Positions 24,290 to 24,900 of a stretch of DNA of 64,000 bases are shown piece by piece. Within the stretch, counting starts at the first letter, position 1. Each line of letters begins with the position of its first letter. Both the position numbers and the translations under genes were made by a program. The notes beneath the pieces are model-generated. The model was not told the DNA's origin, ran no database searches, and was given only the letters and a program-made list of their open reading frames with translations. This stretch comes from a virus, in the IMG/VR virus record IMGVR_UViG_3300042273_000448; one strand, given 5' to 3'.

Positions 24290-24900
24290 AATAGGTGGAA
24301 TTAAGAGTTTGGACTTGCTAGTTGGTTAAGAGCTAATTAGTGAGCGCTTGGTAAAATATTTCCGAGTGAGGACGACTTCTTCATAAAATGTTTGTCCCAT
24401 TGTCAATGACAATGCAAGATCCGCCCCTGAAGCAACCAAAGGGGATGTATGAATTTCACGCGAGTGACTTTTGTGTCAATTTGACTCATGCTAGGTCCAA
24501 TCCCTTCATGAGCCACCGGCATAAATGCCCAGCAGACGTTATCCTAAAGCCATCTGCTGGAGAGGATAGAATCCGACTGTACTAGTTTCTTGTAACGATT
24601 TTGATTTTTGCTAGTGTTCTTAGTGATCAAAATTTATTAACGGGAAAGGGAAGATCGTTTTGTAGATTGGGAGCATATGAATGCCCAAGAAGTTCAGATC
24701 AAACTAGACCATACCTGAACTTGGCTTAATCAACCAAACAGAACGTAGGAAAACATAAGGAACCTCGCCGCAATGCATACTGTTTCAAAGCTCTTTTGTG
24801 GGGTAATGAGAACGGGATGTGTTTGGCAGGAAATTGAATGTTTCTTCTTAGATTAAATTAGTCTAGGTAAGTCACGTTCAATTTCCTGCCGAATGCATTG
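24290..24900 (+). ncRNA. candidate structured noncoding RNA (GC-rich island in a 1-kb gene-free region)
   Basis: About 600 nt, visibly more GC-rich than the flanks, as the tRNAs are. Only a 65-aa ORF of no recognisable content. Hairpins include a 14-bp stem GGCAGGAAATTGAA(35 nt)TTCAATTTCCTGCC at 24824-24886 and CCAGCAGACG...CATCTGCTGG at 24528-24557. Putative promoter upstream. Strand and class not established. Confidence 0.25.

Follow-up and report, generated by a model that had tools for sequence, protein, structure and literature searches.

We analysed a stretch of viral DNA of 64,000 nucleotides (nt), IMG/VR record IMGVR_UViG_3300042273_000448 (the window), from an uncultured T4-like phage that carries genes for a Gp23-type capsid protein, a T4-type portal and a gp17-type terminase. 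A sequence-only reading had marked positions 24290-24900 as a candidate large structured RNA, dense in hairpins. We found that the core of this element, 24303-24898 on the plus strand, has homologues at the same place in related phages, and compensatory base-pair changes in seven homologues strongly support the proposal. With a probability that we put at about 0.8, the element is a stand-alone late gene whose product, a structured non-coding RNA about 600 nt long, is read from the plus strand, belongs to a family outside Rfam 15 and acts in trans by its shape. On the narrower point, the pattern of substitutions shows a conserved, strand-specific and richly base-paired RNA of about 600 nt that falls in no Rfam 15 family. 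Its newness is gauged against Rfam 15 and not against the 10,006 structured RNAs that Fremin et al. predicted from IMG/VR in 2023 (PMC10690425).

The island and its homologues

The G+C (GC) content of 24300-24899 was 0.38-0.46 in 200-nt windows, compared with 0.21-0.29 on both flanks. With 300-nt windows the island peaked at 0.433, against a mean of 0.307 (standard deviation 0.048), which places it among the strongest GC peaks of a stretch with an overall GC of 30.7%. The other strong peaks are tRNA clusters (0.447-0.473), with eight tRNA genes at 11225-13302 on the minus strand (Gly, Pro, Leu-UAG, Glu, Thr, Leu-CAA, Ala and Asn). The island lies in a noncoding gap of 1003 nt (23975-24977) between minus-strand open reading frames (ORFs) of 247 and 144 amino acids (aa).

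The phage uses genetic code 4, with TGA read as Trp, as judged from its genes: the ORFs tile the genome only if TGA is a sense codon (for example 25447-26832 on the minus strand and 51594-55799 on the plus strand), and four in-frame TGA codons of the terminase gene align with Trp residues conserved in most or all of 12 homologues. Once TGA was read through, the total of stop-to-stop frames of at least 100 codons rose from 17,333 to 26,661 codons. A tRNA-Trp(UCA) was not among the eight tRNAs of the window. Since this code was unknown to the sequence-only reading, we re-checked its claim that the island is poor in ORFs. The longest stop-free run in the gap was at most 82 codons in any frame with TGA as Trp, and the picture of a GC-enriched, ORF-poor island in a noncoding gap of about 1 kb was borne out. 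The lone 65-aa ORF of no recognisable content is indeed present at 24388-24585 and has no Pfam or PHROG match.

Contigs with exactly matching flanking proteins were 100% identical over the gap and hence held no variation for covariation analysis. Homologues were sought with the C-terminal part of the terminase as query, and the contigs of relatives were then fetched. Where the terminase of a relative is 63-86% identical, its gene is followed downstream, in some cases after a 143-aa ORF, by a gap of 0.8-1.1 kb without ORFs, and each such gap holds a homologous GC-rich island, always on the strand opposite to the terminase. We recovered seven distinct full-length homologues and two fragments, with core lengths of 517-597 nt and a DNA identity of 58-71%. 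The copy in contig L007 (11428-12024) is about 71% identical across the whole gap; those in L008 (7460-7980) and L009 (12468-13064; the same as L010) are 63-65% and 58% identical in partial alignments. L014 (5100-5618) is near-identical to L008, and L011 (6483-6999) is a further full-length homologue. Two copies were found in IMG/VR, where L055 (4011-4593) was retrieved with a pattern built from conserved blocks. L013 and L029 hold partial copies at the same place, that of L029 being a 3' fragment only.

The plus strand folded with an energy of -190.5 kcal/mol (z = -4.2 against shuffled sequences), compared with z = -1.9 for the minus strand. A first RNAalifold run, on a seven-sequence alignment, predicted 80 pairs, with compensatory double changes at 44; later tests used a nine-row, unrefined MAFFT alignment (A3). 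On this alignment an automatic structure of 55 pairs had 96.4% of its cells paired, compared with 76.5±1.5% in shuffles (0 of 500 reached the observed value) and 39-49% in slid controls, which are the fairer comparison. Double changes occurred at 33 of its 55 pairs, versus 4-14 in slid controls. We also projected onto this alignment a model derived from the window, which has 128 pairs and 20 helices, a pseudoknot included; 84.5% of its cells were paired (71.9% shuffled, 37-47% slid) and 55 of its pairs had double changes (8-25 slid). Registering the helices by hand gave 119 pairs, 96.9% canonical and 71 with compensatory changes, figures that are hand-curated and represent an upper bound. Covariation among homologous phages, by which the sequence-only reading suggested that its proposal be judged, was thus found in the automatic, window-derived and hand-registered models.

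The same alignments tell the strands apart. There were 64 G-U cells against 5 A-C cells, and canonical pairing was 96.4% on the plus strand versus 82.1% on the other, indicating that the RNA reads on the plus strand of the window. Together, the substitutions show that about 20 helices were kept by selection while the sequence diverged to 58-71% identity.

We also considered a decayed or unrecognised protein gene from a GC-richer donor, an origin that the sequence-only reading had raised as a decayed foreign gene and that would fit both the GC excess over the surroundings and the 65-aa ORF. However, this ORF is not conserved. No conserved ORF was found among the homologues: stop-free runs stayed below 100 codons in every frame of every one, and in L055 they did not exceed 53 codons in any frame. 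ORFs of the island had no Pfam match at E ≤ 1 and no PHROG match, so that even relaxed thresholds brought up no protein homology in these databases. Three homologues lack a domain of about 65-80 nt, and the substitutions are base-pair-preserving doublets. A protein gene, decayed or otherwise, is refuted by these results, and we leave it next to no probability. The element instead combines compensatory substitutions with the lack of a conserved ORF, the features by which structured non-coding RNAs are generally recognised.

Architecture and expression signals

The conserved core of 596 nt runs from AAGAGUUUGGAC to a 3' AAUGCAU, and all of its predicted helices are numbered on the plus strand. 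The 5' domain (24314-24444) is a row of five hairpins: P1 (24314-27/24331-44), P2 (24345-51/24362-68), P3 (24370-73/24394-97), P4 (24398-404/24408-14) and P5 (24424-27/24441-44). Compensatory changes were seen in P1, P2, P4 and P5, while P3 covaries only in the hand-registered table. It is followed by a variable domain (24456-24525), which consists of hairpin V1 (24456-59/24464-67), closed by a GNRA tetraloop, and, after it, a long stem, V2 (24470-77/24518-25 and 24485-90/24507-12). The window, L007, L055 and L013 have this V1/V2 form in common; an insert of similar size in L009 folds differently, and L008, L014 and L011 are without the variable domain, a mid-element indel of about 65-80 nt. 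P6 (24530-36/24553-59) was 100% paired in the MAFFT alignment, with double changes at five of seven pairs, and the hairpin P7 (24564-67/24571-74) stands beside it; both have compensatory changes at every position in the hand-registered table.

The central domain (24575-24745) is the most conserved. It carries an invariant GACUGUMCURG that pairs with the loop of P13 to form the pseudoknot PK1 (24582-88 with 24701-07). The core of PK1, 4 base pairs (bp) long, is paired in eight of eight sequences, and in three of these A-U is switched to G-C (CUAG/CUAG to CUGG/CCAG). An extension of PK1 to 7 bp (CUAGUUU/AAACUAG) was dropped as a general feature, being found only in the subgroup of the window; the 4-bp core alone is general. 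Next to it a three-tiered stem is built from P8 (24598-605/24626-33), P9 (24611-14/24620-23) and P10 (24589-93/24640-44). P11 (24656-62/24739-45) is a covarying long-range pairing, GUUUUG/CAGAAC, across about 75 nt. It encloses P12 (24667-71/24684-88), P13 (24692-97/24715-20) with its conserved 17-nt loop, and P14 (24721-24/24734-37), a local hairpin containing GGCUUA. GNRA tetraloops were found in V1 (GCGA, GAGA, GCAA) and in P12 of L007 and L055 (GAAA, GCAA). Such predicted tetraloops, together with a covarying pseudoknot, are hallmarks of a tertiary fold.

Towards the 3' end, a conserved linker, GGAACCUCGCC / GAAACCUCGCC (24759-24778), ends in the first AAUGCAU palindrome (24772-24778). The long terminal hairpin P17 (24825-24890) contains a perfect 14-bp stem that had been noticed before; the stem is real and forms part of a longer hairpin, but its coordinates had been placed 1-4 nt off. 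Its strands are GGCAGGAAATTGAA (24825-24838) and TTCAATTTCCTGCC (24877-24890), and it extends to 17 pairs. The base of P17 is conserved and covaries (GGCAGGA/UCCUGCC versus UGUAGGA/UCCUACA in L009), and the length of its tip varies. P17 is bracketed by two copies of the AUGCAU palindrome. The second AAUGCAU (24892-24898) is followed by an A/U-rich tail with U runs to 24945, and 24892-24945 is probably the 3' end region. Further pairings of CCUC with GAGG (24368-71) and of AUGCAU with AUGCAU are possible; their positions are invariant and give no covariation signal either way.

The motif TATAAATA is the consensus of T4 late promoters, which depend on gp55. One copy lies on the plus strand at 24265-24272; it precedes the conserved core by 30 nt, is followed by no ORF and is the putative promoter of the RNA, whose transcription would start near 24279. 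By a T4-type late unit we mean a unit that is transcribed late and preceded, at about 6-40 nt, by a TATAAATA box. Here the box is present and conserved, and across this genome the motif behaves as promoter motifs do. The window holds 33 copies versus 15.6 expected, and 13 of the 33 precede a gene start on the same strand by 0-80 nt, compared with about 4% by chance; the genes concerned include those for the terminase and gp23. Before the RNA core the motif is exact in L007, L055, L008 and L011 and has one mismatch in L014 and L009.

The sequence-only reading had pointed to another promoter-like element facing the island. This element does exist, as a -35-like box TTTACA (24232-24237, plus strand), a 17-nt spacer and TAAATT ending at 24260, with the box 27 nt before TATAAATA; a TTTAC box is kept in seven of seven full-length homologues, where it precedes the TATAAATA-like box by 17 or 23 nt. 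As the promoter of the RNA, however, TATAAATA is the better candidate. Two copies of a 21-bp intergenic motif had likewise been described as flanking the island, but both (24080-24101 and 24125-24146) lie to its left. They belong to a motif of about 22 nt, AAGTTATTGAAATNNTTAGATA, with four plus-strand copies versus 0.11 expected, the other two being at 6065-6086 and 47573-47594. In L007, L055, L008 and L014, copies of TAAGTWNTTGAAATNATT, which resemble AAGTTATTGAAATNNTTAGATA, lie at the same intergenic place, with the RNA promoter on one side and the next gene on the other. For the divergent minus-strand gene, AAGTTATTGAAATNNTTAGATA may serve as promoter or operator.

We propose that the RNA would be transcribed from a T4-type late promoter of its own. 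Its three-dimensional shape would enable it to act in trans at a late stage of infection, either as a compact RNA or as a particle of RNA and protein, in the manner of ROOL and GOLLD, large and ornate RNAs associated with phages. Coding, antisense pairing or a role as an intron would not be its mode of action. Several points weigh against this proposal. The comparison draws on only seven distinct full-length sequences in three sub-groups, and L008 and L014 are so nearly identical that the shuffle statistics overstate independence. We infer the transcript, its ends and its timing from the DNA, and no canonical or consensus intrinsic terminator was found after the RNA. A ROOL- or GOLLD-like mode of action would be an analogy drawn from size, complexity and phage context. 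Finally, two relatives, L015 (terminase 54% identical, with gp13 directly following it) and L195 (62%), have no island, which makes the RNA accessory, inserted at one fixed site in a single sub-clade, and not essential to the virion plan.

Known families, neighbouring genes and possible roles

At the gathering score, a search of the whole window with Rfam 15 returned only the eight tRNAs, all outside the island. At E ≤ 10 with permissive filters, 23950-25050 gave only chance matches to microRNA and small nucleolar RNA hairpins, on the P17 stem, and five homologous loci (L007, L008, L009, L011 and L014) searched at E ≤ 10 likewise gave nothing beyond chance matches of this sort. The covariance models of ROOL and GOLLD, which the sequence-only reading had put forward as candidates, had no match at E ≤ 10 in the window or the five homologues.

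A highly diverged ROOL or GOLLD could have escaped these models. The core lengths of 517-597 nt lie near the ROOL average of 581 nt, both families are often phage-borne, and ROOL has few highly conserved nucleotides (PMC5737381). However, permissive filters brought up neither family in the 1.1-kb slice or the five homologues, and no tRNA is closer than the one ending at 13302, about 11 kb off, whereas ROOL and GOLLD often adjoin tRNAs. Because no model matches and the RNA is not beside tRNAs, we take it for a new family, and membership in either of the two is quite improbable.

RNase P and transfer-messenger RNA (tmRNA), for which an Rfam scan had been suggested, gave no match at E ≤ 10. By eye there is no GGAAAGUCC-type P4 strand of RNase P, and an apparent resemblance to RNase P (GGCUUA...ACAGAAC, and GAGG) was rejected: GGCUUA lies in the local hairpin P14, and CAGAAC pairs with GUUUUG in the covarying P11. 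Nor was a tRNA-like end seen by eye, and ARAGORN finds only the eight tRNAs, all elsewhere. An RNA of the phi29 packaging RNA (pRNA) type also had no Rfam match, and the present element is about 600 nt long.

Patchy presence among relatives, in a genome rich in mobile elements (inteins and a GIY-YIG nuclease in the terminase; an apparent intein with an HNH domain in the portal of L007), would suit the remnant of a self-splicing intron, a retron-type RNA or the RNA of some other mobile element, the first two of which the sequence-only reading had listed. Against such an origin, no intron, retron or other mobile-element RNA family of Rfam matched. The element is not an intron, group I or group II, because it lies between complete genes with its structured strand opposite to both. 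For a retron, no reverse transcriptase was found among the genes within ±6 kb or in the flanking ORFs, and in identical contigs TnpB, IscB, IS110 and reverse transcriptase were all missing within ±6 kb. An origin of this kind is therefore largely refuted and very improbable.

The RNA is on the plus strand and its flanking genes are on the minus strand, an antisense orientation without overlap. These genes, the 144-aa ORF (24978-25412) and the 247-aa ORF (23231-23974), have no PHROG match and no significant Pfam match (weak matches only, at E 0.0075-0.37, none of which reaches the cut-off). By eye the 144-aa ORF resembled an intein, a reading without Pfam or PHROG support. An ORF of 143 or 144 aa stands alongside the RNA in the window, L007, L055, L012 and L013 and is missing in L008, L011 and L014. 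A search of IMG/VR found no relatives of the 247-aa ORF.

Beyond the 247-aa ORF, and thus one ORF away from the RNA, lie two adjacent minus-strand genes with homology to anti-defence proteins, the CBASS inhibitor Acb3 (22526-23227, E 3.6e-51) and the Thoeris inhibitor Tad3 (21918-22526, E 1.7e-37), and then genes for DUF5662, an anaerobic ribonucleotide-reductase activase and NrdD. This setting suggests a role, compatible with the anatomy above and bearing on function only, as an anti-defence RNA, that is, an abundant structured decoy or sponge that would block a host immune sensor or effector. Like accessory genes, the RNA is patchily present among relatives; it occupies a variable accessory slot and has its own promoter. 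In L008, L011 and L014, however, it lies between the terminase and the neck gene gp13 with no anti-defence gene adjoining, and a late promoter fits early counter-defence poorly. We consider this role unlikely.

On the other side, beyond the 144-aa ORF, lies the gene for the large terminase (25447-28916, minus strand), which contains two apparent inteins, GKC|VSWDT...KSHN|S and RGRS|CVPKY...ISHN|C, the second with a homing endonuclease of the GIY-YIG/NUMOD3 type. The terminase frame is broken inside the second intein, where ORF 26811-28916 shares 22 nt with ORF 25447-26832, which is in another frame. In several relatives the terminase is uninterrupted and 513-517 aa long. The portal of L007 (4017-6926) is 969 aa long, with precomputed Pfam matches to Intein_splicing and HNH_3 inside Portal_T4; this suggests that it carries an intein and that the clade is heavily colonised by homing elements.

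The place of the RNA, always adjoining the large-terminase gene, and its late-type promoter, like those of structural genes, would suit a component of DNA packaging or head assembly. Such a component could be an RNA partner of the terminase or portal, comparable to the pRNA of phi29, or a cis-acting pac or ori region with a locally relevant transcript. No small-terminase gene was recognised adjoining the large one in the window, and the conserved AUGCAU palindrome could mediate self-association. However, the terminase, nuclease domain included, is an ordinary enzyme of the T4 gp17 type, relatives without the RNA exist and no pRNA model of Rfam matched; a T4-type terminase is not known to need an RNA. 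A purely DNA-level site, moreover, would not keep G-U pairs on one strand. We regard a packaging component as improbable.

We then looked at how widely the new family occurs. BLAST searches of 50,697 GenBank phage records, in near and distant modes, gave only chance matches of 26-49 nt. A pattern scan of JGI metagenomes gave 12 matches, of which only the L007 contig was real. The pattern scan of GTDB genomes gave at least 120 chance matches, with no nhmmer homologue among the matches listed and thus no sign there of a copy on a host chromosome. Separately, three independent assemblies of relatives (L029, L030 and L031) end at the terminase stop codon or no more than 256 nt beyond it, exactly at the expected start of the RNA gene; this may be coincidence or may reflect trouble with assembly or coverage at the locus.

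Comparison with other large RNAs

Large, intricately folded RNAs of bacteria and phages are rare, and the known ones mostly do unusual biochemistry. GOLLD is about 800 nt long, and OLE about 600 nt. OLE, raiA and HEARO (omega) RNA are of a length comparable to that of the present RNA and have many conserved helices; unlike it, they are chromosomal and have characteristic partner genes (oapA/B/C for OLE and IscB for HEARO), and neither such genes nor a match to their models was found here.

The pRNA of phi29 is likewise a structured RNA encoded by a phage. For the present RNA the link to packaging is positional only, through a place beside the gene for the packaging ATPase and nuclease, and as noted no pRNA model matches it. 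pRNAs are 120-174 nt long, belong to phi29-like podoviruses and are transcribed early.

The closest likeness in size class is to ROOL (Rumen-Originating, Ornate, Large; Weinberg et al. 2017, PMC5737381), with an average of 581 nt compared with 517-597 nt here. Like ROOL, the present RNA has many hairpins and junctions and a pseudoknot and is a stand-alone gene of a kind that phages or prophages of low-GC hosts often carry; the comparison covers about 20 helices and one supported pseudoknot, junction topology not being part of it. Unlike ROOL, it has been seen only in one clade of T4-like phages with code 4, always beside the terminase, and it lacks both the model match and the neighbouring tRNAs. 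The phage setting of ROOL and GOLLD is seen here and their proximity to tRNAs is not, although that association is a frequent one and not a rule. With GOLLD it shares being a large, ornate, phage-associated non-coding RNA; GOLLD is longer than the 581-nt ROOL (PMC5737381), and here too there is neither a model match nor an adjacent tRNA.

ROOL and GOLLD are both large and ornate, often borne by phages and without known function (PMC5737381), and cryo-electron microscopy has recently shown that they form RNA-only homo-oligomers (PMC12286853), or cages. By analogy, this suggests one testable mode of action for the present RNA. A bolder possibility, which we judge clearly unlikely, is a new large functional RNA with its own late-infection role, either as a self-assembling particle or ribozyme in head filling or assembly or as a ROOL- or GOLLD-like cage. 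If this were true, the traceable genetic context could reveal what cage-type RNAs do, and the assembly version would be a T4-like counterpart of the pRNA of phi29.

Our results add to the size class of ROOL and GOLLD an RNA that appears unrelated to them; it has an apparent late promoter and a fixed address by the gene for a packaging enzyme. Natural contrasts of presence and absence come from close relatives, some of which carry the RNA and some of which lack it, and this gives a better-constrained case for the function of such RNAs. The natural variants of 517-597 nt, which differ by one dispensable domain, offer a clean target for cryo-electron microscopy, the method by which the homo-oligomers of GOLLD and ROOL were seen.
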